Counted from the first letter of the stretch, positions 1,900 to 18,980 are shown. The stretch: DNA of 64,000 bases from Fibrobacteria bacterium (GCA_043732185.1 JAYTHY010000046.1:5250-69249); one strand, 5' to 3'. A program made the numbers and translations. The notes: a model not told the origin generated them from the sequence alone.

Positions 1900-2135
1900 A
1901 GCAATGGATGGGGCGCGAATCGGCGGTTTGAAGGCGTTTCGGTGGAGTCTTGATCGGTAATCTTGAGGTCAGATGCGACCTAAAGAAAACCAAATGTTGG
2001 AGATTGATGAATTCGATACAGTTTCTTCATAGTTGGAAATCCCGGATGCATAGTGCAATGCAAAAGTCGTAATCCAGTATCATTAATTGTCCTCGCCGTC
2101 GAATATTCTTATATTTTCGAGACCAGAAGGATAAA

Positions 2136-2621
2136 ATGCCAGGGACTATCTTAAAGTTGAAAAGACATCGGTTGCTTCCTGCAATCTCGGTTCTCACGGT
2201 TTCATTGCTTCTTACAGGTGAGTTTTTCAACTGCTGCCGCATCAACGTAGCCTTCGCGGTGGACGTCCGTCAGGTTATTCAAACTTTGGGTTTTATTACG
2301 CCGTTAAAGGCTGTGGCCTCGACTTCGGAAGACCCTGACCATCATTGCCATGGTCATGAAGTCCATTCCACCTCTCAAATAGATGGTGATGCCATCCCAG
2401 GCCTTTCCATGTTCACGCAAGTTGGAAGTTGCATATCCGATCAGTCGATAGCCAAGAAATCCATGGTGGGAAGCGAATCCTTCACATTGGAAATACCCAC
2501 GGCGGCTACTAGGTTTCTTGAAGAACCGCTCGTCGTTAAATCGTTCTCTATCGACCATCCTCGCCCCCAAAACAGGTCCAGCCCCCCCATTTATCTCCTC
2601 ACCCTTCGTATCCTCGTTTAA
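2136..2621 (+). CDS. hypothetical small exported protein with His-rich HHCHGHEVH motif (coding status uncertain)
   Basis: AGGA 5 nt upstream of the ATG, in an AT-rich promoter-like region. N-terminal hydrophobic segment and a His cluster. An overlapping minus-strand ORF (2304..2570) is also His/Met-rich, so strand assignment is ambiguous. Confidence 0.25.
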   Translation: MPGTILKLKRHRLLPAISVLTVSLLLTGEFFNCCRINVAFAVDVRQVIQTLGFITPLKAVASTSEDPDHHCHGHEVHSTSQIDGDAIPGLSMFTQVGSCISDQSIAKKSMVGSESFTLEIPTAATRFLEEPLVVKSFSIDHPRPQNRSSPPIYLLTLRILV

Positions 2622-2752
2622 ATCCCCGCTGGAAGCCGTATTTCCGGTTTCTCTATTGAGTCTTTGGCGTAAGGCTTAACCCTCCCGCCTTAGCTCATCA
2701 CCGTACTCAACATATTGACTTTTTGGGTTTTGTAAACAAGGAGATCAGTGAA

Positions 2753-3967: not shown

Positions 3968-4935
3968 GCATCCGTACATTCGTTCAATGTTTGGCTTTGG
4001 TTATCTTGACTGGCGCGAGCCGAACTTTCGCCCATGCCGGGCATACTGAAGCGCCCCAGGAGCAAACCGGCGCAGGAGGACCGGTCTTCCTATCGGAGGA
4101 GGCGGAAAAAAATCTAGACATCCAGACGGCGGAAGCCACCGTGCAAGCCATCGAGAAAACCATAAAAGCCTCCGGAACCGCGCAGGCCATCCCAGGCACA
4201 CGTGAAAACGTGGCCAGCAAGATTGCCGGAAGAGTGGTTGAACTCAAGGCCACGCTGGGCCAGTACAAGAAGCAAGGAGAACCCCTGCTCATTTTGGAAG
4301 CGCGTCAGCTTTCGGAAACCCCTATTCGCGTTTCCGTCCTCGCGCCCCGCAGCGGAAAAGTGGTCAAACTCAATGTGATCAAAGGCGATGCTGTGGAAAC
4401 GGGGACCTCCCTGCTTGAGATCGCCGATTATTCGGAGGTTTATGCGGTTGCGAAGGTGTACGAATCCCAGGTTGGTAGGATCACTAAAGGCATGCCCGCA
4501 CGAATCTATTCTCCTGCGCTTAAGAATAAGGAATTGGACAGCAAGGTCGATGTGATCGGATCCGAAGTGAACCCTCAGAGCCGCACCGTGGACGTATGGC
4601 TTCGGGTCAAAAACCAGAATGAACAATTGAAAATAAACATGACCGTGAGCGTCTTTTTCCTGGCCGATAAGGAAGATGAATCCATAGTCGTGCCGAAGTC
4701 GGCTTTACTAGGTTCGGGAGGCGAGCGCTTCGTTTTCGTCGTGGAAGGAAACAAGTACACCCGTACCTCCGTTGTTACGGGTATCGAGAATGACAAGTGG
4801 ATCGAGATTGTTGAAGGTCTCACGCCGGGGGATTCGGTTGTGACGCAAGGGAATTATCAATTGCAATTCGCCAAAACCAAACCGGCAACGGGTACCCCGG
4901 CAGAAGCTGGAAAACCCGGTTCCAAGGCGAAATGA
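3961..4935 (+). CDS. RND efflux periplasmic adaptor (membrane fusion protein, CzcB/CusB-like)
   Basis: Signal sequence MVSIRTFVQCLALVILTGA plus beta-barrel/lipoyl-like MFP motifs. ATGGTAA overlap with the upstream stop. Confidence 0.8.
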   Translation: MVSIRTFVQCLALVILTGASRTFAHAGHTEAPQEQTGAGGPVFLSEEAEKNLDIQTAEATVQAIEKTIKASGTAQAIPGTRENVASKIAGRVVELKATLGQYKKQGEPLLILEARQLSETPIRVSVLAPRSGKVVKLNVIKGDAVETGTSLLEIADYSEVYAVAKVYESQVGRITKGMPARIYSPALKNKELDSKVDVIGSEVNPQSRTVDVWLRVKNQNEQLKINMTVSVFFLADKEDESIVVPKSALLGSGGERFVFVVEGNKYTRTSVVTGIENDKWIEIVEGLTPGDSVVTQGNYQLQFAKTKPATGTPAEAGKPGSKAK

Positions 4936-4941
4936 GCCAAT

Positions 4942-7900
4942 ATGCTTAACTTAATCATCCGCTTTTCTCTCCGTAATCGGCTCCTTATTACGGCCCTGGC
5001 CGTCTTACTCACCGTGTACGGGACCTATGTGCTGCGCAAGCTCCCCGTGGATGTCTTTCCGGATCTTAATCGTCCCACCGTTACCATTTTCACGGAAGCC
5101 TCTGGTCTTTCCCCGGAAGAAGTGGAAGCCTTAGTCGCCTATCCCATCGAGACCGCCATGAACGGCGCCACAGGAGTCGAACGGGTTCGATCGGTCTCAA
5201 CGCCCGGTCTGGGCCTGGTGTTCGTGGAGTTCGATTGGTCCACGGATATTTATATCGACAGGCAGATCGTGGCCGAAAAACTTCAGAGCATCCGGGAAAA
5301 TCTCCCGCCTTCCGTGAATCCGGTCATGGGACCCATCACGTCCATCATGGGCGAAATCATGCTTATCAGCGTCAGCGGCGATTCTACTTCACCGATGGAT
5401 TTGCGAACCTTGTCGGACTGGACCATAAAACCCAGGCTACTCAGCATTCCCGGGGTGGCCCAAGTTATCCCCATTGGAGGCGATCTTAAACAATACCATA
5501 TCCTCGTCTCGCCGGATAAGTTACGCCAGAACGGCGTGACCCTGCGTCAGGTCGAGGAAGCGGTCAAGAAGTCCAATACCAATTCTACAGGTGGATTCCT
5601 GGTGCAGGGATATACGGAAGCCGTGGTACGCAACCTCGGACGCGTAGAGTCCCTGGATGATTTGCGGAATACTGTCGTCGCGTTCCGGGACGGGCAATCC
5701 ATCACCTTGGATCAGGTAGCGGATATCCGTTTCGGATCTCCGCAAAAAAGAGGATCCGGGGGATCGAATGCCAGGCCCGCCGTTATCCTGAGCGTTAAAA
5801 AGCAACCGGGCGCAAGCACCACCGACCTCACGGAAAAAGTCGATGCCGCCCTGAAGGATTTGCAAAAGACCCTTCCAAAGGGCGTTGAAATCAATGCCAA
5901 CCTATTCCGCCAATCCAATTTCATAACTACCGCCATCGGCAATGTCGAAGACGCCTTGCGTGACGGGAGCATCCTGGTTGTCATCGTCCTCTTTTTCTTT
6001 CTCCTGAATTTCCGGACCACCTTCATCACCTTAACGGCCATTCCGTTGTCCATTCTGATTACCGTACTGGTCTTCAAGATCTACGGCATTTCCATCAATA
6101 CCATGACCCTCGGGGGTTTGGCCGTCGCCATCGGAGAGTTGGTTGATGACGCCATCGTGGGAGTCGAGAACGTATTCCGCAGATTAAAGGAGAACAGCGC
6201 GAAACCCAATCCGGAGCCGGTCCTGGACGTCATATACATCGCATCCTCGGAGGTCAGGAATTCCATCGTCTTCGCGACCTTGATCGTAGTGCTTGTCTTT
6301 ATCCCATTGTTTTCATTGGGTGGGATAGAAGGACGCATCTTTGCCCCGCTGGGCATCTCCTATATCCTTTCGATCCTGGCGTCGCTGCTGGTTTCCCTCA
6401 CGGTCACTCCCGCATTATGCGCCTATCTGCTTCCCAATGCGAAGTTTTTGCATAAGGAAGCGGATGGGCCGTTGGTCCGCTTCCTCAAGAACTGGAATCG
6501 GAAATATCTTTTGGAACCAACCATCAGCCGACCTTGGTTGTCCCTATCCATAGCCCTGGTACTTTTGGCAGCGGCCGTCGCGTCCTTTCCATTTCTGGGA
6601 AAAGAATTCCTACCGCCATTCAACGAAGGCACGGCGACAATCAATGTCCTTTTGCCGCCGGGAACCTCGCTTCCCGAATCGGATCGCATCGGCATATTGG
6701 CTGAAAAATTAATCCTCAAAGTGCCGGAAGTCCTGTCGACTGGGAGGCGGACCGGCCGGGCTGAAGAGGATGATCATGCCGAAGGGGTCCACTCAGCGGA
6801 AATCGACGTGGATTTGAAGCCCAGTAAAAGAAAGCGGGAAGTCATACTCGGGGATATCCGCAAGAATCTCGATTTGATACCGGGTATCGCCATCAATATC
6901 GGTCAGCCCATCTCCCATCGCATCGATCATCTGTTGTCCGGTATACGCGCCCAAGTGGCCATCAAGCTCTATGGCGACGACCTGGGAACATTACGGCAAA
7001 AGGCGGATGAAATCGAAGGACAATTGAAAACCGTTCGTGGCGTAGTGGATTTATCCGTCGAAAAGCAGGTTCTCATTCCTCAGATTTCTGTAAAGCTAAA
7101 TAGGGACGAACTGAAGCGCTATGGCCTACAACCAGGTGACATAACGGAACTCATCCAAACAGCATTGGGCGGTGAAAAAGTTTCCGAGGTCCTGGAAGAC
7201 CAGAAGCGTTTTTCCATGGTCGTCCTGCTGGACAAGGATAGTCGCGCCGACATGGAAAAAATAGGCTCGATCCTGGTGGAGCTTCCGAGCGGGGATCAAA
7301 TCCCTCTGAATATGGTCGCGACAATCCTGCCTGCCGTGGGACCCAACCAGATTTTGCGTGAAAACGTCCGGCGGCGCATCGTTATCCAATGCAATACTAG
7401 CGGCCGCGATCTGGGCTCCGTCGTTAATGACATCCAGAAGGTGATAGGCGAAAAAGTCCAATTGCCGACTGGATATTTCATCGAGTACGGCGGACAATTC
7501 GAAAGTCAAAGGGAGGCCAGCCGAATGATTGGGCTTCTCAGTATTTTCTCGCTATTGGGGATGTTCCTCGTACTATTCATGCACTTCCGTTCCGTCAAGC
7601 TTGTCATGTTCATCATGCTCAACATCCCCTTCTCCATGATCGGCGCCGTACTCGCCCTTTGGCTTACGACCCGGACCTTCTCCATCGGTTCCCTGGTGGG
7701 ATTCGTCACCCTTTGCGGCATCTCCGCCCGCAATGGCATCATGATGGTCTCGCATTACCTCCATCTGCTTCGGGAGGAAGGAGAAACATGGACACCGCAT
7801 ATGATCACGCGGGGCGCTTTGGAGCGCTTGGTTCCCGTCCTCATGACGGCCTCAACCGCGGCCTTGGCTCTTATCCCTCTCATCCTGTCGCCTAGCGAAC

Positions 7901-8079
7901 CTGGTAAGGAAATCCTGTATCCGGTCGCCGTCGTCATCTTTGGCGGACTGATCAGTTCAACCTTGATGAACATTGCTTTGGTCCCAACCATGTTTTGGAA
8001 TTTTGGTCAAAAGGCCGTGGCTCACCTTCTGGAAAAAGATAAGGCTGAAGCCTCAGAAAGGAAGGGCAACACGAATTAA
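4942..8079 (+). CDS. heavy-metal efflux RND permease (CzcA/CusA family, HME-RND)
   Basis: 1045 aa. N-terminus MLNLIIRFSLRNRLLITALAVLLTVYGTYVLRKLPVDVFPDLNRPTV is typical of CusA/CzcA, with 12-TM RND architecture. Confidence 0.9.
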   Translation: MLNLIIRFSLRNRLLITALAVLLTVYGTYVLRKLPVDVFPDLNRPTVTIFTEASGLSPEEVEALVAYPIETAMNGATGVERVRSVSTPGLGLVFVEFDWSTDIYIDRQIVAEKLQSIRENLPPSVNPVMGPITSIMGEIMLISVSGDSTSPMDLRTLSDWTIKPRLLSIPGVAQVIPIGGDLKQYHILVSPDKLRQNGVTLRQVEEAVKKSNTNSTGGFLVQGYTEAVVRNLGRVESLDDLRNTVVAFRDGQSITLDQVADIRFGSPQKRGSGGSNARPAVILSVKKQPGASTTDLTEKVDAALKDLQKTLPKGVEINANLFRQSNFITTAIGNVEDALRDGSILVVIVLFFFLLNFRTTFITLTAIPLSILITVLVFKIYGISINTMTLGGLAVAIGELVDDAIVGVENVFRRLKENSAKPNPEPVLDVIYIASSEVRNSIVFATLIVVLVFIPLFSLGGIEGRIFAPLGISYILSILASLLVSLTVTPALCAYLLPNAKFLHKEADGPLVRFLKNWNRKYLLEPTISRPWLSLSIALVLLAAAVASFPFLGKEFLPPFNEGTATINVLLPPGTSLPESDRIGILAEKLILKVPEVLSTGRRTGRAEEDDHAEGVHSAEIDVDLKPSKRKREVILGDIRKNLDLIPGIAINIGQPISHRIDHLLSGIRAQVAIKLYGDDLGTLRQKADEIEGQLKTVRGVVDLSVEKQVLIPQISVKLNRDELKRYGLQPGDITELIQTALGGEKVSEVLEDQKRFSMVVLLDKDSRADMEKIGSILVELPSGDQIPLNMVATILPAVGPNQILRENVRRRIVIQCNTSGRDLGSVVNDIQKVIGEKVQLPTGYFIEYGGQFESQREASRMIGLLSIFSLLGMFLVLFMHFRSVKLVMFIMLNIPFSMIGAVLALWLTTRTFSIGSLVGFVTLCGISARNGIMMVSHYLHLLREEGETWTPHMITRGALERLVPVLMTASTAALALIPLILSPSEPGKEILYPVAVVIFGGLISSTLMNIALVPTMFWNFGQKAVAHLLEKDKAEASERKGNTN

Positions 8080-8159
8080 CCCTTGGCACCAACCTTGCTC
8101 TCTGTCTCAATGTCTCTCTGTACTGTGTATTTTCAACCATTCATCACTAGGAGTAAATT

Positions 8160-8630
8160 ATGAAGAACACGAAATTGACACTGCTGTCCACCTTCTTTGC
8201 AGCCACCCTATGTACCGTTCCCACCATTCAGGCGAACGAGAAGGGCGAGGCCGCACACGATTCGGCTATGTCTAGATCACCGGAAATGCATATCAATCCC
8301 ACCGAAGGATTGAAAAATATGCATGCCCAGCTGGATAGCGCGGACAAGTACTTGGCAGCAGGCAAACTTGATCGTATGCATGTTTTCGCCGAAGCCATCG
8401 AGGGAGCCGTCGTCGGAATCGACAAAGACACATCCCTAGATGCCATGAAGCAGAAACGTGTTTCCGGTTGCGTGAAAAATATCGCCAAGCTGGCGAAGGA
8501 GTTGGACGAAAACGGCGATGCCAACAAATTGGAGGAGACCCGTAAAACGATTAAAAAGCTAAAGGCCCAGGCAGAATTGTTGGAAAAACAGTTCAAGAGT
8601 AAAGCCGGCAAGGAAGATCACCATAAATAA
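8160..8630 (+). CDS. secreted periplasmic protein, Lys/Glu-rich helical, scattered His/Met (possible metal-binding)
   Basis: Signal peptide MKNTKLTLLSTFFAATLCTVPTIQA. AGGAG RBS. C-terminal EDHHK. Confidence 0.5.
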   Translation: MKNTKLTLLSTFFAATLCTVPTIQANEKGEAAHDSAMSRSPEMHINPTEGLKNMHAQLDSADKYLAAGKLDRMHVFAEAIEGAVVGIDKDTSLDAMKQKRVSGCVKNIAKLAKELDENGDANKLEETRKTIKKLKAQAELLEKQFKSKAGKEDHHK

Positions 8631-8766
8631 CGGAATGCGATATCACCGTAATATCATTGGGTGATTCCGAAGCTGCCGGCGATTTGAAAACCGGCGGTTT
8701 CTCCTATTTTTCATAGTAGTTCTAGAATTGAAATCAAATACACAAACGAAGAAAGCGAGGTCGAAA

Positions 8767-9831
8767 ATGGCCTTTCAAGTCCTGATTCGGGCTTTAGGTG
8801 CCATAACTCTATTGGCACTTTCTGGATGCTCAATAAAAATGAATGACGGTGCGATGGGAAATCCCTCCACGGTTGCCATACCAATAATTACCTCCGATGC
8901 GCTCTATGTCGTTAATGGAGGGAGCAATTCTTTGACGGTCATAAATACCTCTACCAACGAAGTGGCAGGAACCATTGTGCTCAAGGATGTTACCTTTCCT
9001 CACCACCTTTCTTTGAGCCCGGATCGGGGGTCCCTGTCCTTGGCCGTGCCAGGCATGGACCTCAGCGCGGGACACGATGGGGGCGGAATGGCCATGAAAA
9101 TGAAAGGCGCAATACTCAACCTCGACGCCGCCACAGGACAAACCAAGGTCAGCCGCTTGCTGGACGCACCAAATCATAATGGTGCATTTTCCCCGGATGG
9201 CAAGGAGGTGTGGACGTCACAGATGATCATGTCAGGGAATATCCTGGTATTGGATGCTGTTACGCTCACGACCATCAAGATTATCGACGTTGGTGATATG
9301 CCCGCCGAAGTCACCTTTTCCAGCGACGGCAAGTATGCCTTCGTTGCCAATGGGATGTCCAACAACGTGACGATAATCGACGTCGCCATGAAAACGGTAC
9401 TCAAGACGCTTTCGGTGGGCATGAATCCCGTCGGCGCTTGGCCAGGGCCGAACGGCATGATGTATGTCGATAATGAAAAGAGCAAAACCTTGACTGTCAT
9501 CGATGGAGCGAAGCTCGATGCCGTCAAAACCATCAATCTAGGATTCATGCCAGGCATGGCGGCCATCGCACCCAATGGAGAGCTGTGGGTGACGAATGCG
9601 GAAGACGGTAAGGTTGTCTTTTTTTCGGCCACGGATGGTTCGAAGTCAGGTGAACTGGCCACGGGAGCGAATGCCCATGGCATAGCCTTCGCCGGTGATG
9701 GGAAAACCGCTTATGTTTCCAACCAAGGGGCCGGAACCGTTAGCGTCATAGATATTCTTTCAAAAGCTTTGGTCAAAAATATTCCGGTCGGGGCGGAACC
9801 AAATGGAATGGCTTTTAGGAAAATGCCTTAG
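8767..9831 (+). CDS. YVTN-family beta-propeller repeat lipoprotein
   Basis: Lipobox LALSGC. Six or more repeats of the YVxNxxSNxhxVID type (YVVNGGSNSLTVINTST, YAFVANGMSNNVTIIDV, TAYVSNQGAGTVSVIDI). ATG 8767 has a GAGG RBS; the ORF track's start at 8728 is also possible. Confidence 0.75.
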   Translation: MAFQVLIRALGAITLLALSGCSIKMNDGAMGNPSTVAIPIITSDALYVVNGGSNSLTVINTSTNEVAGTIVLKDVTFPHHLSLSPDRGSLSLAVPGMDLSAGHDGGGMAMKMKGAILNLDAATGQTKVSRLLDAPNHNGAFSPDGKEVWTSQMIMSGNILVLDAVTLTTIKIIDVGDMPAEVTFSSDGKYAFVANGMSNNVTIIDVAMKTVLKTLSVGMNPVGAWPGPNGMMYVDNEKSKTLTVIDGAKLDAVKTINLGFMPGMAAIAPNGELWVTNAEDGKVVFFSATDGSKSGELATGANAHGIAFAGDGKTAYVSNQGAGTVSVIDILSKALVKNIPVGAEPNGMAFRKMP

Positions 9832-9880
9832 CATCAACGATGAAATTATTGAAACCAAATACCGAGGAGACGAAATAATC

Positions 9881-11047
9881 ATGGAATTAAAAAACCTTGG
9901 ATTTCTGGCTGCTATCCTCCTTTTCGTTACGGGTTGTCTGAAGCAGGAAAGTTCCCCAACCGGACCAGCTGCCAATGCCCCATTCCAATCCATTTATAAG
10001 CCCATCAAAAGGGAATACTGGATCACCACGGAAACGACATTCAAATGGGATATGGTGCCGGGGGGTGAAGCCATGATGACCAATGATGTCATTACCCCCG
10101 AACGACGCTACCTCTATAAAACCATCCGGTATGTGCAATCCGACAGTCAGTGGAATACGCTCTCCCTACCCGAATGGCAGCAGCTCTCCGGTCCCATCAT
10201 CCGGGCCACCGTAGGGGATTCCGTGCTGGTCCACTTCAAGAATGGCTCGAACACGGGAATGCCCCTGAGCATACATCCACATAATCTTTTCTATAACGAA
10301 GCCAATGAGGGTGTATGGAGGAAGGACCGGCCCAAAGATTGGCCTGAGCAAGGGACGGCGGGAGGATCCGTCCAACCCGGAGGCGAGTTCCTTTATCACT
10401 GGAAAGCCGAAGCGAAGTCCGTTGGGGTTGGCCCCTATCATAGCCACTCCTTCCACCCCGCGGAAGAACTCTCACTGGGTCTTATCGGAACGATCATTGT
10501 TGATGAGCCCCCCGATCATCCGGAATACGTGAAGTTCGATACCACAATCGCATTGATCTTTAAGACTTATCTGGCGAGGGTTTCCCCAATGGATACCACC
10601 GTGAAGGATTCCACAAAAAAGGATACCTGCACGCCGCCCCTTATACCCTGGAATGGCGGCTGCCATCCGAGAGAACACGTGCCCAAAGATCAATGGCCGG
10701 AAAATATCGTGGACTCATTGGCCCATGGGGGTGGACCGGAAGTGCATACAATCAACGGGATTGCTTATGCCAATCTTAAAGGGCTGAGTTTCAAAAAAGG
10801 CCAAAATATCAGGTTCGTCGTGGTGGCGATGGACGATGAAGGAACACAAAACCACACTATCCATTTCCACGGAGAAATGCTCCAGGAAATGACGCGGACA
10901 AATCTATACAAGGACGTGTTCGATCTTCCTTCTGCCGTGGCAATCGATTTGATAATGAAGGCCGAAAATGTGGGTAAGTGGATGCTTCATTGCCACGTCG
11001 AGCATCACGCTTCGGAAATGATGGCAACTTACGAGATCAGGGAATAA
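9881..11047 (+). CDS. multicopper-oxidase-like cupredoxin lipoprotein (probably two-domain type), paralog A
   Basis: Lipobox FVTGC. All four MCO copper-ligand motifs are present: HPHN, YHSHSFH, HTIHFHGE, HCHVEHHASEMM. GAGGAG RBS before the ATG at 9881. Confidence 0.65.
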   Translation: MELKNLGFLAAILLFVTGCLKQESSPTGPAANAPFQSIYKPIKREYWITTETTFKWDMVPGGEAMMTNDVITPERRYLYKTIRYVQSDSQWNTLSLPEWQQLSGPIIRATVGDSVLVHFKNGSNTGMPLSIHPHNLFYNEANEGVWRKDRPKDWPEQGTAGGSVQPGGEFLYHWKAEAKSVGVGPYHSHSFHPAEELSLGLIGTIIVDEPPDHPEYVKFDTTIALIFKTYLARVSPMDTTVKDSTKKDTCTPPLIPWNGGCHPREHVPKDQWPENIVDSLAHGGGPEVHTINGIAYANLKGLSFKKGQNIRFVVVAMDDEGTQNHTIHFHGEMLQEMTRTNLYKDVFDLPSAVAIDLIMKAENVGKWMLHCHVEHHASEMMATYEIRE

Positions 11048-11089
11048 GAATTTAGAAATCAACGCGTATTCAACGAGAAGGTAAATCTA

Positions 11090-11413
11090 ATGCAACTCAG
11101 AAAAATCGAAGCCTACGTCCGTAGAGAGCGGCTTTCGTTTATTCTCATGGGCCTGGACAAACTCCCCAAGTTCCCGGGAATTACGGTCCTTGACTGCCAG
11201 GGTTTCGGCAACGAGCATCAGCCAAAGACCCACGCCCGGATTGTAGAATACCTCCTTGAACCCTTTCGCCATGCCAAACTTGAAATATTCTGCCCCGAAG
11301 ATGAAATGGGTCGAATTATTGGAGTTGTTAAGGAACAATCCGGGACCAAAGAAGGAAGCCATGTTAGGATTTTCGTATCTGAATTGGGAGAGTTCGAGGA
11401 AGTTAAGAGATGA
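11090..11413 (+). CDS. PII-like (GlnB/CutA-fold) small protein, PII-NG-like
   Basis: 107 aa. KIEAYVRRERLSFILMGLDKLPKFPGITVLDCQGFGNEH is collinear with the GlnB N-terminus (KIEAIIKPFKLDDVREAL..GITGMTVTEVKGFGRQKGH). The T-loop is shortened and lacks Tyr51. Confidence 0.6.
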   Translation: MQLRKIEAYVRRERLSFILMGLDKLPKFPGITVLDCQGFGNEHQPKTHARIVEYLLEPFRHAKLEIFCPEDEMGRIIGVVKEQSGTKEGSHVRIFVSELGEFEEVKR

Positions 11414-11444
11414 CAACCTTGTTGGATAATATTTTGAACCCTAT

Positions 11445-12437
11445 TTGGCGGGGCTTCAAATAGCCCGCCTTCTATTTTTCATCCTCTTTATCTTGAATAC
11501 TATGTACGCATTCGCTGGACGCTGGGTCGTTCACGATATAAGAAACATTCCCGGCAAAGAGGTCAACGTAGTTGTCGGAGACCGGAACGGAAATAAATGG
11601 ATTGGAACAAATAAAGGCCTTGCGGAGTTGACCTTTTCCGGGGAGTGGAAGCTGTTCAACAGGAAAAACACCAATGGAAATCTGAATTCGGATTCAATCA
11701 CTTGTTTAGCCGTGGATTCCAAGAATAATATTTGGATTGGAACCAGGGGAGGAGGGGTTTCCGTCTTTGGCTATGGGTTATGGAAGAATTTCACTTCGGA
11801 AGGTACCAGCGGGTCACTTCCTGACAATTGGATTACGGCAATCGATATCGGTAGTGACGGTGATGTTTGGGTCGGCACTTACAACGGATTCGCGAAACTT
11901 CGTGGGATGAACTGGACTAGTTTTTCCGGTGATAAGATCTCCGGACACCTTCCCAGTAAAATAGTGACTGCCCTGGCGGTGGAGGGTGAGTCCAATGTGT
12001 GGATCGGAACCGCCGGCGGGCTTGTCCATTTTTACCGGTCGGAGTGGGAGATTTACAAAAAAGAAAATACCTCAGGTGGATTGCCTCACAATAGCATCAC
12101 CTCAATTTCAATATCGCCTTCGGGAACAAAATGGATTGGAACATATCGTGGAGTTGGAAGGCTTTCTGGTTCTGCGTGGAATTCTTTTCCGAATGTTAAA
12201 ATGCCAGATGAATTACGTGAGGCGCATATTTACCAGGTTAATGCGGACAAAAAAGAGGATGGTTGGGTTTCATTCAAGGGTGGAGCGGCGCATTGGAATG
12301 GAAATTCCTGGAAAATATTTACCAAAGAAAATACCGGAGGCGGGATTTCCACAGGTTATGTCTATGCCACCTATCCCGAGGAGAATGGCCAAATATGGTT
12401 TGGAACTAGGGAAGGGTTGACCCAGTATATTCCGTAG
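11445..12437 (+). CDS. secreted stand-alone 7-bladed beta-propeller (two-component-regulator propeller / Reg_prop-type repeats)
   Basis: TTG start. Signal peptide ending AFA. Seven repeats of the pattern N.WIGT..G.. (NKWIGTNKGLAEL, NIWIGTRGGGVSVF, DVWVGTYNGFAKL, NVWIGTAGGLVHF, TKWIGTYRGVGRL, QIWFGTREGLTQY). No kinase or receiver domains. Confidence 0.65.
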   Translation: MAGLQIARLLFFILFILNTMYAFAGRWVVHDIRNIPGKEVNVVVGDRNGNKWIGTNKGLAELTFSGEWKLFNRKNTNGNLNSDSITCLAVDSKNNIWIGTRGGGVSVFGYGLWKNFTSEGTSGSLPDNWITAIDIGSDGDVWVGTYNGFAKLRGMNWTSFSGDKISGHLPSKIVTALAVEGESNVWIGTAGGLVHFYRSEWEIYKKENTSGGLPHNSITSISISPSGTKWIGTYRGVGRLSGSAWNSFPNVKMPDELREAHIYQVNADKKEDGWVSFKGGAAHWNGNSWKIFTKENTGGGISTGYVYATYPEENGQIWFGTREGLTQYIP

Positions 12438-12513
12438 ACACGTTTTTTTTAAAAAAGGTGTTCAGAATGAAACCGTAGATTTTCAAAGGCACAAACGCCC
12501 AAGGAGAGTGCAA

Positions 12514-13686
12514 GTGAAACCAAACCGAATCATACGTCTTTGCCTCGCAGCCCCGTTATTTTTCCTTTCCGGCTGCCTGACCAAGGAAAGTTCAACCACC
12601 GGCCCGGATGCCTCACCCGCATTCACATCCAGCTATTCTCCCGTTAAAAGGGAGTACTGGGTCAGCACTGAAACCAAGTTCAAATGGGACATGGTGCCGG
12701 ATGGGGAGGCCATGATGACAAATGACATCATATATCCGGAAAGACGTTACTTGTATAAAACCATCCGTTACGTCCAAACGGATAGCCAGTGGAATGTACT
12801 CCCGCAACCCTCATGGCAGCAGCTTTCCGGACCTATCATACGCGCGACGGTAGGCGACTCGGTTATCGTTCACTTCAAGAATGGCGCCAATACCGGAATG
12901 CCGTTGAGCATGCATCCTCATAACCTGGTCTATGATGAAGCCAATGAAGGCGTCTGGAGAAAGGATCGACCCAAGGAATGGCCTGAAGGAGGCACCGCGG
13001 GTGGCTCAGTGAAGCCGGGTGATTCCTTTACTTATAAATGGAAGGCCGAGGAGAAGTCGGTCGGCGTAGGTCCCTACCACAGTCATTCCTTCCATCCCGC
13101 GGAAGAGATCGCCTTCGGGCTAATCGGAACAATCATCGTGGACCAGCCGCCGGATCACCCCGACTATGTGAAGTTCGACAGCACCATCGCGCTGGTTTTC
13201 AAATCCTACTTGGCAATGGTCGCTCCCATGGATTCAAGCATGAAGGACACGACCAAGAAAGACACCTGCACGCCGCCCCTCATTCCATGGAATGGAGGAT
13301 GCCATCCCAAAGAGCATGTACCCCAAGATCAATGGCCCGAAAACATCATCGACTCAATGGCACATGGAGGCGGTCCCGAGGTACATACCATAAATGGAAT
13401 CGCGTATGCCAATCTCAAAGGTCTGGTTTTTAAAAAAGGACAGAACATCCGATTCGTCGTGTTCGCAATGGATGATGAAGGAACACAGAATCACACGGGT
13501 CATTTCCACGGCGAAATGCTTCGGGAAATGTCCCGGAAGAACCTCGTTAAAGACGTATTCGATCTTCCCTCCGCAGTGGCGATGGACCTGATGATGAATG
13601 CGGAAAATGTGGGGAAGTGGATGCTGCACTGCCACGTAGAACATCATGCGTCCGAAATGATGGCCACCTATGAAATCTCAGAGTAA
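12514..13686 (+). CDS. multicopper-oxidase-like cupredoxin lipoprotein, paralog B
   Basis: Roughly 80% aa identity to 9881..11047 (by eye), with the same four Cu-ligand motifs (HPHN, YHSHSFH, HTGHFHGE, HCHVEHHASEMM). Lipobox FLSGC. GTG 12514 has AAGGAG at -7; the ORF track's GTG 12508 is an alternative. Confidence 0.65.
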   Translation: MKPNRIIRLCLAAPLFFLSGCLTKESSTTGPDASPAFTSSYSPVKREYWVSTETKFKWDMVPDGEAMMTNDIIYPERRYLYKTIRYVQTDSQWNVLPQPSWQQLSGPIIRATVGDSVIVHFKNGANTGMPLSMHPHNLVYDEANEGVWRKDRPKEWPEGGTAGGSVKPGDSFTYKWKAEEKSVGVGPYHSHSFHPAEEIAFGLIGTIIVDQPPDHPDYVKFDSTIALVFKSYLAMVAPMDSSMKDTTKKDTCTPPLIPWNGGCHPKEHVPQDQWPENIIDSMAHGGGPEVHTINGIAYANLKGLVFKKGQNIRFVVFAMDDEGTQNHTGHFHGEMLREMSRKNLVKDVFDLPSAVAMDLMMNAENVGKWMLHCHVEHHASEMMATYEISE

Positions 13687-13695
13687 GGAATCGAA

Positions 13696-14286
13696 ATGAA
13701 AAAGACAATCCCTTTCATAATTGTCGCCGGAATAGGCGTATTCGGATGCAGTCAAAAATCAGAACGCGAGAAAGAATCCACTTCTATGTCGGCCCAGGAA
13801 TCAACCAGGCCCAAACCGGCCTTTGCTGCCCCGGACTCATTCAAAGTGGGGCTCGGAAAGGTTTTTGAAGGCTATACCAATATCGAATCCGCCTTGGCGC
13901 ATGATAACTTCGCCCAGGCCAAAGATGCATTCCAATCCATGCATACCATATTGCACATTCTCCAAACCGACGGTCTGGATAGTTCCGGCAAAGTTTACTG
14001 GGATTCTCTGGATGGGGCCATTATGGGAGTTCTTCATCCCATGGCCGCTGCGGAAAACATCTCGGGAATGCGCGATCACTTCATCGATTTCACGCCGCTG
14101 ATTCTGGATGCGGTTGAGAAATTCGGAGCGTCATCCGAAATCCAAGCCTACCTATTCCATTGCCCTATGGCCAGGAATAAAAAAGGAGCAGATTGGCTTC
14201 AACGCGATACCGTGCTGTTAAACCCCTACTATGGGAATTCGATGCCCACCTGCGGGGCGCTTGTGAGAGAGGTAAAATTCCACTAG
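13696..14286 (+). CDS. lipoprotein with HCPM motif (DUF3347-like / heavy-metal-binding-motif-like)
   Basis: Lipobox VFGCS. C-terminal YLFHCPMARNKKGADWLQ resembles the YxCPMHP heavy-metal-binding motif. AAGGAA RBS. Confidence 0.5.
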   Translation: MKKTIPFIIVAGIGVFGCSQKSEREKESTSMSAQESTRPKPAFAAPDSFKVGLGKVFEGYTNIESALAHDNFAQAKDAFQSMHTILHILQTDGLDSSGKVYWDSLDGAIMGVLHPMAAAENISGMRDHFIDFTPLILDAVEKFGASSEIQAYLFHCPMARNKKGADWLQRDTVLLNPYYGNSMPTCGALVREVKFH

Positions 14287-14367
14287 CGCCCCTATTTCCA
14301 GATTTGACTAGGTATCATCTTTTAGGGTCTCTCCACCGAATTTCATTCACACGAAAGGTGTACAAAA

Positions 14368-14892
14368 ATGAATTACTCGAAAATAGTATCCAAAATATCC
14401 CTGCTCCTATTCTCTTTCATTTTGCGAAGAGCTGCATTCATCCGTATCCTCAAGAGTCTCATATTCACCGGAATTGCATTAACCAGCGCATCTCTGATAT
14501 CGTGCGCTCAATCATCACCAGGAAATCGCGACTCCGGTGAAACGAATTCTTCGACTCTGAATAATTCAGGAGAAATCCAAGGCGTTCTTCATGAGTTTCA
14601 GCTAAGGCTCGATTCAGTAAGGTCGGCGATCGACAGCAATGACCTAAACAAGATTCATGGACAGGCCGAAAACCTCATCCACTGTAAAAAAGCGATCGGG
14701 GGTCTGTATTCCTCGAAAAATGCCTGGGAACGAAATAAAGTCAAGAGCTATTTACACGACATCGATCTTAGCCTTTACTGGCTGCATCAATATGCCGATT
14801 CAAGGGATAGAGCAGCTTCAAATAAAATATTTAATTCGCTCAAATTGGAATTTGAAGCCTTACAGAATTTCTTAGCTCCAAGAATTAAATGA
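14368..14892 (+). CDS. hypothetical helical lipoprotein
   Basis: Signal/lipobox LISCAQ. No recognisable domain. Confidence 0.45.
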   Translation: MNYSKIVSKISLLLFSFILRRAAFIRILKSLIFTGIALTSASLISCAQSSPGNRDSGETNSSTLNNSGEIQGVLHEFQLRLDSVRSAIDSNDLNKIHGQAENLIHCKKAIGGLYSSKNAWERNKVKSYLHDIDLSLYWLHQYADSRDRAASNKIFNSLKLEFEALQNFLAPRIK

Positions 14893-14924
14893 ATTAGGTA
14901 TCACAAAGGGAGGACTTTTACAGC

Positions 14925-15371
14925 GTGAGACAACCTTTTCCAGGAGTGAATGTTTTGGAACCAAAGAAGCCGCGCTTGACTCCCCGCCCAATTCGACATG
15001 TCCCTGGCCCTCCCATGGAAAAGACGCAAGCAGAAGGGCAAAGCATTTTCAAATACCGCGACTATCGCGAATTCATCCGCGACTTCTACACCTCAAGAAA
15101 AGCGAAGGATCCGAAATTTTCTTTTCGCAAGATGGCAATACTCCTAAGCCTCCCCAGTCATGGCCATATTATATTCCTAATAGACGGCGCAAGAAATGCG
15201 GGCACTAAATCTTTCGCGAAAATGATTCGCGGCTTTGGTTTCTCAGGGAAAGAAATCCCTTATTTTGAAAACCTGGTAATGTTTAACCAGGCAACCTCAA
15301 ACCAGGAAAAAATGTTCTATAAAGGGCGTCTTACGGAGCTATTAGGAAAAAAGCCTTTGCGAACAAATTAA
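14925..15371 (+). CDS. TIGR02147-like (Fibrobacter paralogous family) N-terminal fragment, 148 aa, ends in an in-frame TAA
   Basis: YRDYREFIRDFYTSRKAKDPKFSFRKMA...IPYFENLVMFNQA resembles, from memory, the conserved N-terminal half of the TIGR02147 family. About half the usual family length. Confidence 0.45.
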   Translation: MRQPFPGVNVLEPKKPRLTPRPIRHVPGPPMEKTQAEGQSIFKYRDYREFIRDFYTSRKAKDPKFSFRKMAILLSLPSHGHIIFLIDGARNAGTKSFAKMIRGFGFSGKEIPYFENLVMFNQATSNQEKMFYKGRLTELLGKKPLRTN

Positions 15372-16685
15372 GTGGTAGGGTCGCACGTGCCCCCTTTCTG
15401 CTCCCGAAAGGAATTTGATTGCTATTATTGCGTCATGCCAGACCTATTCCAAAGTTTGATTTCACGATACAAGTCCGATCCCGAATCCGTATACCATACG
15501 TGGTTTCTTAATAGCGGAGAAAGACTCAAGGCTTTCCGTTCCGTTCGGCTTGGTGTCGCGCAAGTTATCTCGGACATCCAGACTGGGAAATTCGGAAATG
15601 ATTTCAAAGGCTCTTCGCTGGAGTTCGTTCTCAACTGCATTACCGAACAGAAGCAGGTTTTTGAAGGGGCCGCGCATCCATTTTATTGGAAACCGAAGTT
15701 GCGTATTCCCGATATCTATGAGAATCAACCCAACAAAATTGCGTTCGGACAATTTCTCGAAAAGTGCCTGAACGCGACCAAGGAGGAACAAATACTGAAG
15801 GAGATCGCGCACTTAGACGATCTCTCCATCAAGGGCCTGGGCCCGGCGGTCGCCAGTATCCTGTATTTTCTTCATCCAACCCTCATTCCCCCGTGTAACA
15901 CCGCCATCGTCAACGGTTTCAATACTCTATTCGGAGAAAAAAGGAAACTGGGTTCCTGGCAGGAATATTTGAAGATGCGGGAAACCATCCTAGCCAGGAA
16001 CAGCGAATGGAAATCGGAACTGTCCAACGATCTAGGCGCAATCGGTGGATTCCTGTTCGATGTAGGCGTTAAAAAAATCGTTCCCGATGAAATCCAAAAT
16101 CTCACCGCCGAAGAAAAAGAAAAAATCGATTCCCTGGTTGGAAAAAGACGGAAGGACATTCGTACGGAAAGAGAGGAAGAAGGTTTGCATTCCGAAATGC
16201 AGTACCATCTTCTCAAGATCGGCAAAGCGCTGGGATATGATGTAATTAGCGCCGTAAATGACCGCTCCCGTCAGCATCAGGGGAATCTTTTCTCCTTTGT
16301 ATCACTTCAACATTTTCCCGTTTTGCCCGTGGATGAAGATGTCTTATCCACAATCAAGCTTGTCGATGTGCTCTGGTTTGAGAAAGGAACTTCGAAAATC
16401 GTGTGCGGGTTCGAGGTAGAAAAGAGCACGTCTATATACTCCGGAATCTTACGATTGAGTGATTTATTTTTCTCCCTTCCGGACCACCAAACCAAACTTT
16501 TCCTGGTGGTTCCCAATCAAAGGGAAACCGAAGTCATAATGCAACTGGGGCGACCGTCGATTAAAATCCATGCCACCAGCATTCAATACATCCTTTTCTC
16601 AGAACTCCGGGATAATTGCGACGCCTTATGCCGGTTCGGTGAAAATCATGCGATCATGAGTAAAATTGCCAAAAAAATCACATGA
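15372..16685 (+). CDS. HhH-motif + PD-(D/E)xK restriction-endonuclease-like protein (start uncertain: GTG 15372 directly after the TAA, or ATG 15435)
   Basis: Central LSIKGLGPAVASILYFLHPTLIPPCN is helix-hairpin-helix-like. The C-terminus (EMQYHLLKIGKALGYDV ... VDVLWFEKG ... GFEVEKS) matches the E / hD / ExK order of Mrr-like nuclease cores. Same frame as 14925..15371. Confidence 0.5.
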   Translation: MVGSHVPPFCSRKEFDCYYCVMPDLFQSLISRYKSDPESVYHTWFLNSGERLKAFRSVRLGVAQVISDIQTGKFGNDFKGSSLEFVLNCITEQKQVFEGAAHPFYWKPKLRIPDIYENQPNKIAFGQFLEKCLNATKEEQILKEIAHLDDLSIKGLGPAVASILYFLHPTLIPPCNTAIVNGFNTLFGEKRKLGSWQEYLKMRETILARNSEWKSELSNDLGAIGGFLFDVGVKKIVPDEIQNLTAEEKEKIDSLVGKRRKDIRTEREEEGLHSEMQYHLLKIGKALGYDVISAVNDRSRQHQGNLFSFVSLQHFPVLPVDEDVLSTIKLVDVLWFEKGTSKIVCGFEVEKSTSIYSGILRLSDLFFSLPDHQTKLFLVVPNQRETEVIMQLGRPSIKIHATSIQYILFSELRDNCDALCRFGENHAIMSKIAKKIT

Positions 16686-16806
16686 CCTCGCTTTACGCTG
16701 AACCAATCCCGTGTGACACAAATACTCATAGCCGCTTGAGCACTTGAACCGAAGCTCCCCCTTCCAAGCATTCAATTTTTTCATGGAGACTGAAAAATAA
16801 TCCCGG

Positions 16807-16825
16807 GGTTGTCTTATAGACAACC
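16807..16825. promoter_or_regulatory. perfect 7-5-7 palindrome GGTTGTC-TTATA-GACAACC upstream of 16920 gene (candidate operator)
   Basis: Seen directly in the sequence. About 95 nt upstream of the first ATG of the 582-aa gene. Confidence 0.3.
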
Positions 16826-16919
16826 AATTTCCTGCCAACTCCGCCCTTCTTTCCGGAACAGCCATAGATTCAACTCTTGAGATCCTGCCATCCGAGGGTT
16901 TCTCCTTCGTTAACGTCTC

Positions 16920-18668
16920 ATGGCTTGCTACGAACAAGACTTGATAATGTCAAAATCCCAACTGGGAGCAAGAAAGAACAGAATGCCGGCAGCCGAAAAA
17001 ACTTTTATTGGAATGTCCCTTTTTCTCCCATCTCGGATTGACTTAGGATTTCTCTATCTGGTCCTACTTTCGACTCCAAACCCGACCTGGTCGCACGGCG
17101 CGGATGCTGCCGCTGCGGCCCATCCCGCCCATATCGGTTCAGGAGTGGATATGATGGAACCGGATGATTCATTGAAAATCGCTGTGGACATGTTCGGATA
17201 CCTCGCAAACTCCTGGACTTCCACGCTTGGAGTAGGGACGCCTCTTGGAGCGGGAGGCAAAGGCCCGCAGTATTACAATCAATGGCTTTACAAGAACGGC
17301 CCTTTTGATCGACCACATCTCGAAAAACCGGACCTTCGGCCGGGATATGAAGACTTTTCCTATGTGCCCACGTGGCAGCCGGATCAGTTGGAACTGCGGA
17401 CCCAATACCGTTTTCTTCCCCGTATGTGGGGATCGATTTCCCTCGGATATGATGCCGACCCGATCAATACCGAATCTGAAGACGCCCTCCACGCTCCGAC
17501 CCTCGAAGAGCTGCTTCTGAAGTGGGCGCCGGAAGGCACACCCGGATTGGCGTTCAGCTTCGGTCAGCAAACCATTGCCGGATCTTATAGTCCGATATTT
17601 GATCATTTCACATTGATTCACTCCGAGTTCGCCGGGCTTACGGCCACTTACGAACGCGAATCTTCCAGCGGCGTAAAAATGGAAGGGACGGCGGCCGTGG
17701 GCCAAGAAGGCGTTGGTCGATTGAAAAAGCCTGTTCAATCAAATTCAAACGATGTCGGCGATCCCGGAACCGCAATGTATACAGATGGCATCCGCTCACG
17801 CAATCATTTCCAGGCCAACATTCGGCTCACCTCTCCCGGAGGATTCTACCTGGGCTTCCTGGGCGAATACCAGAGCTTACCTGAAGACAGCACGGTCATG
17901 GTCCCTCTGGCCGCCACCTTATTCAGATACCATTGGCGTAGGAGCCGGGGTTGGCAGGCCGGCGGTGAATGCGGATATGTCGGTAAGATCTGGGAACATC
18001 ATTTTACCGTAAGTCATGGCGAAGGCGATGTGAACATGGCATGGAGCGGTCCTGACGCCATTTCCCTGCCCAGCAGGGTTCCTCCGGATGTGGAATGGAC
18101 CAGAGAGGGTAGCGCGTTATCCCAGGCTATCTATTGGGGCGGATTCCATGACGGGCGCTGGCGCATCGATGCCGGTGCTTGGACGCAGTGGCGCGACCCC
18201 GCAAAGGATGCGGGGTACTCCTACGCCACCGGAAAAACCGGACCGGACAGCATTCTGCAACTGAAAGCGCAGGACTTCCGGGCCGCGAAGCTCGCATTGG
18301 AACCCTCTTTCAAGTGGAGAGGATTCATGACGCTCGGGCTTCGTTACGATTACTTCCTTTATTTGGATCCATCAGCCCATGCCAATACCATAGAACCCCT
18401 TACCGATGCAGCGCTACGACCTGTTGAAGCCGTTTTACCAGATGGATCAACGGCCCAAATGCAGGGACCCTCACAATGGGAGCGCGAAGCTGCCAACGCG
18501 CAAATCATTTCTCCCTTTGCGCAGATGGATCTGGGCGAAGACTTCCATGCCCGTGCAGGCTGGTCCGGAGCTTGGTATAGTAAAGGTGTGAACCGCCAGG
18601 GTTCCATTGGGGAATTCCATGCCAATGCCACTTTGGCGGCTTGGTTCACTTACCGCTTTGACCAATAA
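16920..18668 (+). CDS. hypothetical W/Y/G-rich exported protein, possible outer-membrane beta-barrel
   Basis: 582 aa. Internal candidate signal peptide MSLFLPSRIDLGFLYLVLLSTPNPTWS. Aromatic-rich amphipathic segments throughout. No enzymatic motif. Confidence 0.45.
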   Translation: MACYEQDLIMSKSQLGARKNRMPAAEKTFIGMSLFLPSRIDLGFLYLVLLSTPNPTWSHGADAAAAAHPAHIGSGVDMMEPDDSLKIAVDMFGYLANSWTSTLGVGTPLGAGGKGPQYYNQWLYKNGPFDRPHLEKPDLRPGYEDFSYVPTWQPDQLELRTQYRFLPRMWGSISLGYDADPINTESEDALHAPTLEELLLKWAPEGTPGLAFSFGQQTIAGSYSPIFDHFTLIHSEFAGLTATYERESSSGVKMEGTAAVGQEGVGRLKKPVQSNSNDVGDPGTAMYTDGIRSRNHFQANIRLTSPGGFYLGFLGEYQSLPEDSTVMVPLAATLFRYHWRRSRGWQAGGECGYVGKIWEHHFTVSHGEGDVNMAWSGPDAISLPSRVPPDVEWTREGSALSQAIYWGGFHDGRWRIDAGAWTQWRDPAKDAGYSYATGKTGPDSILQLKAQDFRAAKLALEPSFKWRGFMTLGLRYDYFLYLDPSAHANTIEPLTDAALRPVEAVLPDGSTAQMQGPSQWEREAANAQIISPFAQMDLGEDFHARAGWSGAWYSKGVNRQGSIGEFHANATLAAWFTYRFDQ

Positions 18669-18810
18669 GAACCGCAACACTTCTTCGCTTCGGGCAGGTT
18701 AAATCCTTAGCGACAAAGCCATTCCAGTGGAGGGCAAGAACGGCCTTCTCAGGATCGAAAACGTTAAACCTAAAACCTGCTTAGAGTACCCGGCTAAACT
18801 AATGTTTCCT

Positions 18811-18864
18811 GGTGTCCACAAAGTGTCCACTTTTTGAGAGTAAGAGGGAGGATTTCGGAGGGTG
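18811..18864. repeat. 54-nt motif copy A: GTGTCCAC-AAA-GTGTCCAC-TTTTT-GAGAGTAAGAGGGAGGATTTCGGAGGGT, followed by hairpin 18861..18890
   Basis: About 80% identical to copy B at 19198..19250. Direct octamer repeat with 11-bp periodicity. A 9-bp-stem hairpin (GGTGAGGGA...TCCCTCACC) lies just downstream. Confidence 0.7.
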
Positions 18865-18934
18865 AGGGAAGCAAATGTGCCTCCCTCACCACCGGCCTAT
18901 CGCCAAATCCTTTCGAATTTCAGCGATTAAAAGT

Positions 18935-18980
18935 GCACCCGGCAGGATTCGAACCTGCGACCAACGGTTTAAAAATCCTA
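18935..18980 (-). pseudogene. tRNA-Lys(UUU)-like 3' half-fragment (anticodon loop TTTTAA through T-arm and 3' acceptor strand), no 5' half
   Basis: The minus-strand sequence ...GGATTTTTAAACCGTTGGTCGCAGGTTCGAATCCTGCCGGGTGCA matches the 3' half of bacterial tRNA-Lys. No complementary 5' acceptor strand (GCACCCG) or D-arm is found in several folding registers. Confidence 0.4.

Follow-up and report, generated by a model that had tools for sequence, protein, structure and literature searches.

A 64,000-nucleotide stretch of DNA from an uncultured Fibrobacteria bacterium (GCA_043732185.1 JAYTHY010000046.1:5250-69249; hereafter, the window) carries two related genes for multicopper oxidase (MCO) lipoproteins, which we term paralogs A and B and which lie in a run of plus-strand genes that also encodes a heavy-metal efflux pump. 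Both proteins are predicted to be type B two-domain MCOs and belong to a lineage-restricted family within that established enzyme class. The two genes (positions counted from the first letter of the window) are the following:

9881-11047, + strand: MCO paralog A, 388 amino acids (aa), predicted type B two-domain multicopper oxidase lipoprotein (from its open reading frame [ORF], Pfam, and AlphaFold)
12508-13686, + strand: MCO paralog B, 392 aa (390 aa with the GTG at 12514 as the probable start; from its ORF and Pfam)

The open frame of A begins at 9803 in the six-frame ORF list, and its ATG at 9881 has a GAGGAG sequence upstream and opens onto a normal signal peptide. For B, the GTG at 12514 is better spaced from an AAGGAGA sequence (ending at 12507) than is the codon at 12508, and the corresponding NCBI product (P0001) starts at that same GTG, two codons downstream of 12508, to give a protein of 390 aa that is otherwise identical; judging from the sequence, this second GTG at 12514 is most likely the true start of B.

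The two proteins are 82% identical across 380 aa without a gap (BLASTP), and their genes are 75.0% identical, with 201 of the 285 nucleotide differences at third codon positions in a codon-by-codon comparison; the first-pass annotation of this DNA had put these values, by eye, at about 80% for protein and 75 to 80% for DNA. Synonymous sites are saturated (proportion of differing synonymous sites, pS, of 0.79), and nonsynonymous divergence is low (dN of 0.108), which points to an old duplication with purifying selection on both copies, as that annotation had supposed in describing an ancient duplication with both copies retained. It had also called the genes tandem paralogs: both ORFs lie where it had placed them, but they are not adjacent, since genes for a P-II-like protein and a Reg_prop protein intervene. 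The DNA likeness of A and B is confined to the ORFs and ends at the ORF borders, and there is no third MCO copy within the window. Two independent assemblies, each from another sequencing run, match this region at 100% identity: one (L014) over positions 10105-18963, a segment that spans A, the P-II-like gene, the Reg_prop gene, and B, and the other (L015) over positions 12037-17542. Because L014 is identical and spans both copies, the arrangement of A and B is not a chimeric assembly.

Four motifs and a lipobox define the catalytic and anchoring residues of the two proteins (residue numbers are those of A throughout; ligand numbers in B are those of A plus 4):

A 10274-10285 and B 12913-12924, + strand: HPHN, trinuclear ligands H132 and H134 of domain 1, corresponding to the HxH of ceruloplasmin domain 1
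A 10436-10456 and B 13075-13095, + strand: YHSHSFH, trinuclear ligands H187 and H189 of domain 1, corresponding to the YHSH of ceruloplasmin
A 10853-10876 and B 13492-13515, + strand: HT(I/G)HFHGE (HTIHFHGE in A), domain 2
A 10988-11023 and B 13627-13662, + strand: HCHVEHHASEMM, trinuclear ligands H370 and H372 and type 1 ligands C371, H376, and M381
A 9935-9937 and B 12574-12576, + strand: lipobox cysteine, Cys19 of A (VTGC) and Cys23 of B (LSGC), the invariant column C19

The HTIHFHGE of A supplies the type 1 ligand H325 and the trinuclear ligands H328 and H330 and aligns with HTVHFHG in domain 6 of ceruloplasmin, and HCHVEHHASEMM aligns with ceruloplasmin LHCHVTDHIHAGM at canonical spacing (Cys+5 to His, His+5 to Met), such that HCHVEHH..MM of A matches HCHVTDHIHAGM of ceruloplasmin domain 6. 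By this alignment and spacing, the type 1 ligands of A are H325, C371, H376, and M381, and its eight trinuclear ligands are H132, H134, H187, H189, H328, H330, H370, and H372. All 12 ligands are present in both copies and are invariant throughout the family (27-sequence alignment). That these four motifs are MCO ligand motifs had been proposed from their appearance alone, and the residue-for-residue alignment with the type 1 and trinuclear ligands of ceruloplasmin bears this out. Cysteines in A are limited to C19 (lipobox), C250 and C261 (in an inter-domain insert described below), and C371 (type 1). With no cysteine in domain 1, there is a single type 1 site, which is C-terminal. The lipobox was read by pattern match as a signal peptide ending in [LVI][ASTVI][GAS]C, which both A and B fit, and its cysteine is conserved without exception across the 27 family sequences, in agreement with the earlier view that both copies are lipid-anchored.

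Pfam recognizes two domains in each protein: Cu-oxidase_3 (residues 101-210 of A, 32.7 bits; 39.2 bits in B; gathering cutoff, 21) and Cu-oxidase_2 (residues 291-383 of A, 53.7 bits; 44.2 bits in B; gathering cutoff, 20.4), with no match to the middle Cu-oxidase domain (PF00394) in A or B. An AlphaFold model of A built on a 64-sequence alignment consists of two beta-sandwich domains (predicted local distance difference test score [pLDDT] of 86.2, predicted template modeling score [pTM] of 0.80) and supersedes a weak model from 27 close homologs (pLDDT of 66.7). The top Foldseek match to this model is ceruloplasmin (E value of 4.6e-26, TM score of 0.65), followed by factors V and VIII and subsequently by trimeric two-domain NirK, 3gdc, 7rab, mgLAC, a Nitrosomonas oxidase, and Streptomyces small laccases (SLAC). 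Sequence searches rank solved structures in a similar manner: rat (E value of 5e-52) and human (1.7e-47) ceruloplasmin match A best, then factor V and factor VIII, and bacterial two-domain laccases, the Nitrosomonas blue copper oxidase, NirK, and three-domain laccases reach only 1e-5 to 1e-11. The first-pass annotation had read the proteins as small, two-domain-like MCOs and had proposed structure prediction as the check; the model, with its two cupredoxin domains and aligned ligands, agrees with that reading. Its suggested comparison with SLAC, CueO, and NirK missed ceruloplasmin, which is the closest solved relative. Type B two-domain oxidases are defined as trimers with interfacial clusters (PMC13151041; bioRxiv 10.64898/2026.07.28.741245), and it is from this definition, together with a copper layout that has its type 1 site at the C-terminal end, that we assign A and B to that type on the strength of sequence and model.

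A search of 5.8 billion proteins recovers the family as approximately 25 clusters that are 55 to 82% identical to A, and when 1.84 billion representatives were searched exhaustively, a single one (784 bits) stood for all family members. All of its loci in the genome collection (8 of 8) come from metagenome-assembled genomes (MAGs) of the class Fibrobacteria. Scored per two-domain unit against the family profile, members reach at least 670 bits, whereas nothing outside the family exceeds 143 bits: the best nonfamily units (137 to 143 bits) are bacterial-looking two-domain proteins (e.g., P0087, P0084, P0082, and P0089), and the best ceruloplasmin-type unit scores roughly 90 to 113 bits. The nearest two-domain relatives are 26 to 32% identical and have all 12 ligand columns in common with the family; some derive from Acidobacteriaceae and from Conexibacter/Baekduia, and their automatic names include "manganese oxidase" and "hephaestin." A word-indexed profile search with the family alignment (A1) gained no intermediate relatives, and the exhaustive search alone found them. 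Among bacterial two-domain proteins, P0152 matches ceruloplasmin with an E value of 2.4e-220, and P0089 bridges toward the small laccases (1e-41 to ceruloplasmin, 1.5e-29 to SLAC-type laccases).

A bootstrapped neighbor-joining tree recovers the Fibrobacteria family as monophyletic (100%) with a long branch leading to it, divides the ceruloplasmin-like group from all other sequences (99%), and places the short/SLAC-like groups apart from the family. The three units of the six-domain proteins form a clade of their own (82%) with the family outside, a topology that excludes an origin from ceruloplasmin by deletion of domains 2 to 5 (i.e., fusion of domain 1 to domain 6). The family is likewise ruled out as the closest bacterial relative of ceruloplasmin, a position for which P0152-type proteins have the far stronger claim. 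In these sequence comparisons, the family appears as a lineage of its own, placed between the ceruloplasmin-like and short/SLAC-like groups. A published scheme derives the six-domain proteins from a two-domain ancestor (PMC3600357); the placement of the family is consistent with this scheme and adds nothing decisive to it.

Three features set the family apart from other two-domain proteins. Its members have HPHN where other two-domain relatives have HxHG, and they carry an insert of about 45 residues between the two domains, with the core TCTPPLIPWNGGCHP(R/K)EHVP.DQWPEN, in which C250, C261, H262, H266, and W272 are invariant:

A 10625-10678 (residues 249-266) and B 13264-13317, + strand: inter-domain insert core, TCTPPLIPWNGGCHP(R/K)EH, from the alignment

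The insert is missing from the other two-domain relatives compared and is modeled by AlphaFold as a hairpin with moderate confidence. Also invariant is H375, which directly precedes the type 1 ligand H376 and stands at the position of the ceruloplasmin iron ligand D1025. Many homologs end in short His-rich C-terminal tails (GHTGH, PGH, or NPHHH; e.g., P0002, P0006, P0008, P0011, P0016, P0022, P0023, P0025, and others in alignment A1), which A and B themselves lack.

The plus strand carries every gene between 2136 and 14286; the intergenic gaps are -43 to 101 bases, and the order is 161-aa protein, outer-membrane efflux channel (OEP), adaptor, pump, 156-aa protein, YVTN propeller, A, P-II-like protein, Reg_prop protein, B, and DUF3347 protein. 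A promoter and terminator scan of positions 1900-15000 returned sites no more frequently than in shuffled sequence, and it therefore provides no operon boundaries. Besides A and B, the operon comprises the following:

2136-2621, + strand: 161-aa Cys/His-rich protein, first gene of the operon, no Pfam or NCBIfam match
2723-3967, + strand: outer-membrane efflux channel (OEP/TolC-like; Pfam OEP, E value of 8.9e-31)
3925-4935, + strand: CusB/CzcB-like periplasmic adaptor (Pfam HlyD_D23; TIGR01730 above cutoff)
4942-8079, + strand: CusA/CzcA-family heavy-metal efflux pump of the resistance-nodulation-division (RND) type (TIGR00914, 841 bits against a cutoff of 701; Pfam ACR_tran)
8160-8630, + strand: 156-aa secreted helical protein between pump and MCO, without a family assignment
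8728-9831, + strand: YVTN/YncE-type beta-propeller lipoprotein (Pfam, NCBIfam), found in this sublineage only and also in L001
11090-11413, + strand: P-II-like protein of 107 aa, between A and B (Pfam P-II, 34.4 bits against a cutoff of 25)
11445-12437, + strand: secreted Reg_prop beta-propeller of 330 aa, between A and B (Pfam Reg_prop, E value of 6.5e-24)
13696-14286, + strand: DUF3347 lipoprotein (Pfam DUF3347), a gene that is also downstream of the MCO in L003, L007, L008, L009, and L011

Much of this arrangement recurs at other loci of the family (given here by L numbers). The order 161-aa protein, OEP, CusB-like adaptor, RND pump, 156-aa protein, and MCO is found in L002, L003, L004, L008, L009, and L011, each with one MCO directly after the 156-aa gene; this set, in which the pump adjoining the MCO is conserved, extends to the most divergent family member (55% identity), that of L011. 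The 161-aa protein and its homologs (L002, L003, L004, L008, and L009) have an N-terminal hydrophobic segment, the invariant motifs CC(R)(I/V)NE, HCHGH, and SC(I/L)SE, and an invariant C terminus of the form RPRPQN(R/K)SSPPxYLxTL, making the protein a candidate for a new metal-binding or regulatory protein. The 156-aa protein has homologs at the same place in L002, L003, L004, L008, and L009, several of which have a His-rich HEGEDHSK stretch following the signal peptide, and the corresponding place in L011 is occupied by an unaligned ORF of 151 aa. The C-terminal end of the DUF3347 lipoprotein carries the invariant motif FHCPMA..GA.WLQ..NP(Y/F)YG..M..CG, and in L006 (5994-7859), a DUF3347 module is fused to the C terminus of an HMBD-CusB-like adaptor, which suggests that the DUF3347 protein works with the efflux adaptor. 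The pump itself has residues other than methionine at all three positions of the Cu(I) methionine triad of Escherichia coli CusA (M573, M623, and M672), with His at or beside the M623 and M672 positions (EGVHSAEID and RIDHLLSG), and its metal specificity may differ from that of Cus.

Elsewhere in the family, P1B ATPases with HMBD domains lie near the MCO in L001, L009, L011, and L013 (in L009 and L013, YHS domains also), and L010 has its MCO beside an RND pump with a CusB-like fusion. In L012 (5177-10173), the two-domain MCO is downstream of an OEP gene, a 434-aa three-domain MCO, DUF3347, and DUF2231; as a separate observation, two structurally different copper oxidases thus occupy one cluster. 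Metal-homeostasis neighbors are present at all 11 family loci that have flanking sequence, and genes for carbohydrate or aromatic catabolism at none. The genomic association with copper resistance consists of the heavy-metal efflux (HME)-RND operon, the YHS/HMBD ATPases, DUF3347, and the three-domain MCO neighbor.

Relative to the single-MCO operons of L002-L004, L008, L009, and L011, the lineage of the window has a second MCO copy and three additional genes, namely, those for the YVTN propeller, the P-II-like protein, and the Reg_prop protein; in the ancestral layout, a lone MCO stood with the 156-aa gene before it and DUF3347 after it. The module of propeller plus A occurs also in L001, where a propeller homolog of 83% identity is upstream of an A-type gene. 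In the family tree, the A clade (the window copy, L001, L002, and L005) has 98 to 100% support and the B clade (the window copy and L007) 100%; the two are sisters at only 55 to 58% support and share a larger clade with P0002, P0003, and P0004. The duplication probably arose within a single Fibrobacteria sublineage, long ago.

On balance, we think it probable that the paralogs A and B are lipoproteins of the type B two-domain MCO class that act as trimeric, periplasmic, Cu(I)-oxidizing enzymes in copper tolerance. Each protein would be exported and anchored by lipid at its lipobox cysteine so as to face the periplasm, and each chain would fold as two cupredoxin domains and assemble, by analogy with every characterized two-domain MCO, into a trimer. 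At each interface, a trinuclear cluster would form from H132, H134, H187, and H189 of domain 1 and from H328, H330, H370, and H372 of the neighbor's domain 2. The type 1 copper of domain 2 (H325, C371, H376, and M381) would accept single electrons from the substrate and pass them over the H370-C371-H372 bridge to the cluster, where O2 would be reduced to water. The substrate would be periplasmic Cu(I), whose conversion to Cu(II), a less toxic form, would contribute to copper tolerance; Cu(I) is the most likely substrate because the MCO lies inside or next to metal-homeostasis genes, mostly CusA/CzcA-type operons and often accompanied by copper-type P1B ATPases and DUF3347, in nearly every locus examined. 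The analysis establishes the ligand set, the fold, the lipobox, the selection, and the synteny; the trimer, the O2 dependence, and the Cu(I) substrate are inferred, and it is the genomic context that points to a role in periplasmic metal tolerance, most simply by oxidation of Cu(I).

Several observations weigh against this reading. There is no Met-rich segment of the CueO/PcoA kind in A, which has 13 Met in total, and the CopA model TIGR01480 scores just 50 bits against a cutoff of 479. The linked pump is without the Cu(I) methionine triad of CusA, which leaves the exported metal uncertain. The interfacial geometry of the cluster is an assumption, and the window carries no sign of oxygen availability in the host niche.

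Other substrates were considered as alternatives. As the characterized type B two-domain oxidases SLAC and CjMCO are laccases, A and B could act on phenolic or lignin-derived compounds in a host that degrades plant polymers, and cultured Fibrobacteres are indeed lignocellulose specialists. We consider this unlikely: the uniform metal-homeostasis setting of the family loci never gives way to carbohydrate or aromatic catabolism, a membrane-anchored periplasmic site is poorly suited to polymeric lignin, and the SLAC family is distant from A (E values of 1e-5 to 1e-6). A ceruloplasmin-like ferroxidase, which would convert periplasmic Fe(II) to Fe(III) in connection with the export of iron or divalent metal, draws on the fact that ceruloplasmin is the best solved-structure match in both sequence and fold and on weak matches of the channel and adaptor to the divalent-metal exporter IhpA/IhpB, which, however, score far under the cutoffs. 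The iron ligands of ceruloplasmin domain 6 are E272, E935, H940, and D1025 (PMC3738974). In A, E320 occupies the position of E272/E971 and H289 that of H940, but E935 is replaced by Gly284 (in an extended alignment) and D1025 by the invariant His375, and the H940 position varies across the family among H, Q, and N, so that only the E272 equivalent, E320, is retained throughout. Neighboring ATPases, moreover, carry YHS and HMBD domains, which we take to be of the copper type, and a ferroxidase role seems to us rather unlikely.

Still less can be said for the remaining alternatives. Manganese oxidation is suggested by the name that JGI has given to some family members, such as P0004, and the Bacillus Mn oxidase MnxG is ceruloplasmin-like; but the name was transferred automatically, appears also on many unrelated two-domain relatives alongside "hephaestin," and is matched here by no MnxE/F-like partners or Mn-related neighbors, making such a function highly improbable. 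Copper nitrite reductase (NirK-like) would combine a two-domain trimeric fold with suitability for an anaerobe, and NirK structures are among the fold matches. Its type 1 site, however, is N-terminal and accompanied by a single type 2 copper with three His, as opposed to the C-terminal type 1 site and eight trinuclear His of A and B, and its sequence scores are far weaker (E values of about 1e-6), such that this function has next to no likelihood. Finally, paralogs within one operon are sometimes redundant, and one copy could be a decaying or noncatalytic duplicate, or the pair an assembly artifact. The chances of this are very slight: A and B each retain all 12 ligands and the lipobox, their dN is low against saturated synonymous sites, orthologs of both the A-type and the B-type clades exist in other genomes, and an independent, identical assembly spans both copies.

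Cu(I) oxidation, then, is the activity that we favor, and the features peculiar to the family allow a bolder version of it. The insert (C250, C261-H262, and H266) and H375 could together constitute a Cys/His copper substrate site in a membrane-anchored trimeric cuprous oxidase coupled to the HME-RND pump, with Cu(I) oxidized and then exported as Cu(II), and the A and B copies might form mixed trimers. This elaboration is speculative, and we think it quite unlikely to hold; if true, it would constitute an oxidation-coupled copper efflux route distinct from Cus.

The remainder of the window contains housekeeping genes (e.g., RecA, UvrB, GlgB, and a GlpD-like dehydrogenase), and its annotation includes no terminal oxidase or other oxygen marker in either direction. 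The first-pass annotation had called an O2-dependent MCO pair unexpected if the host is a strict anaerobe. Two-domain MCOs occur also in anaerobes, such as anammox bacteria (bioRxiv 10.64898/2026.07.28.741245), and the presence of MCOs in this host is not in itself surprising. One family locus (L013) bears the sample label BUSI22. We take this to be a glacier-fed-stream metagenome, and we read the MAG names as presumably denoting glacier-fed streams and groundwater habitats. A gene of a paralog family of Fibrobacter succinogenes follows the operon and, belonging to a Fibrobacter family, fits a Fibrobacteria host:

14925-15371, + strand: TIGR02147 (Fibrobacter succinogenes paralog family) gene, NCBIfam

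Three other regions of the window merit mention in their own right. Adjoining the TIGR02147 gene is an ORF of 437 aa (15372-16685, + strand), for which the identical L014 lists a restriction-enzyme-like domain, NmeDI_C, by precomputed annotation. A 1,727-aa ORF (39527-44710, - strand), whose sole Pfam match is the bacterial Ig-like domain Big_5, probably encodes a surface protein. Lastly, genes for a Ser/Thr protein kinase of 632 aa (25810-27708, + strand) and for a protein of 909 aa that has an FGE-sulfatase-like domain (28672-31401, + strand) lie near each other.

We regard the finding as real: a lineage-restricted family within an established enzyme class, for which a role in copper tolerance is plausible. 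It overturns nothing, in that the enzyme class, its copper chemistry, and the link to copper tolerance were already established. What it adds is a third deep-branching sequence lineage of type B two-domain MCOs, the other two being the SLAC-like and ceruloplasmin-like groups of bacteria; sitting on the branch between these two, the family is a useful data point for the scheme in which ceruloplasmin arose by triplication. In addition, the near-constant placement of the MCO beside metal-homeostasis genes, in most cases a heavy-metal efflux operon, yields a concrete, testable hypothesis for type B two-domain oxidases, whose physiological roles are acknowledged to be unclear.

Compared with known systems, A most resembles ceruloplasmin, hephaestin, and factors V and VIII in its active-site residues: the histidines of domain 1 are alike, domain 2 carries the type 1 and cluster ligands of their domain 6, and an N-terminal REYW..E..W.W signature is common to A and the ceruloplasmin group. 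Ceruloplasmin-group proteins, however, have six domains as opposed to the two of A and B (388 to 392 aa), identity is just 20 to 26%, and the iron-site set of ceruloplasmin is not retained in the family; with two domains instead of six, the cluster of A and B must form between subunits. The bacterial two-domain ceruloplasmin-like proteins P0087, P0084, P0082, and P0089 are alike in the 12 ligand columns but are without the insert and differ in signal type and genomic context.

SLAC (LccED superfamily K) and CjMCO of Cellvibrio japonicus (superfamily N) have the same architecture as A and B, with a C-terminal type 1 site and four plus four cluster His, and enzymes of both types are trimeric (bioRxiv 10.64898/2026.07.28.741245; PMC13151041). 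The match of SLAC-type proteins to A is nevertheless too weak to indicate close kinship, and the Fibrobacteria family is distinguished from SLAC and CjMCO (the latter compared by description) by its lipid anchor, its Cys/His insert of about 45 residues, and its metal-homeostasis neighbors. A copper-binding His-rich region has been reported in CjMCO (PMC13151041), and the His-rich tails of family members resemble it. CueO, PcoA, and CopA are monomeric and have three domains and Met-rich substrate regions, whereas A and B are two-domain proteins without a Met-rich region; nonetheless, it is with these enzymes that A and B share both the proposed role in Cu(I) oxidation and a gene setting of copper and metal resistance.

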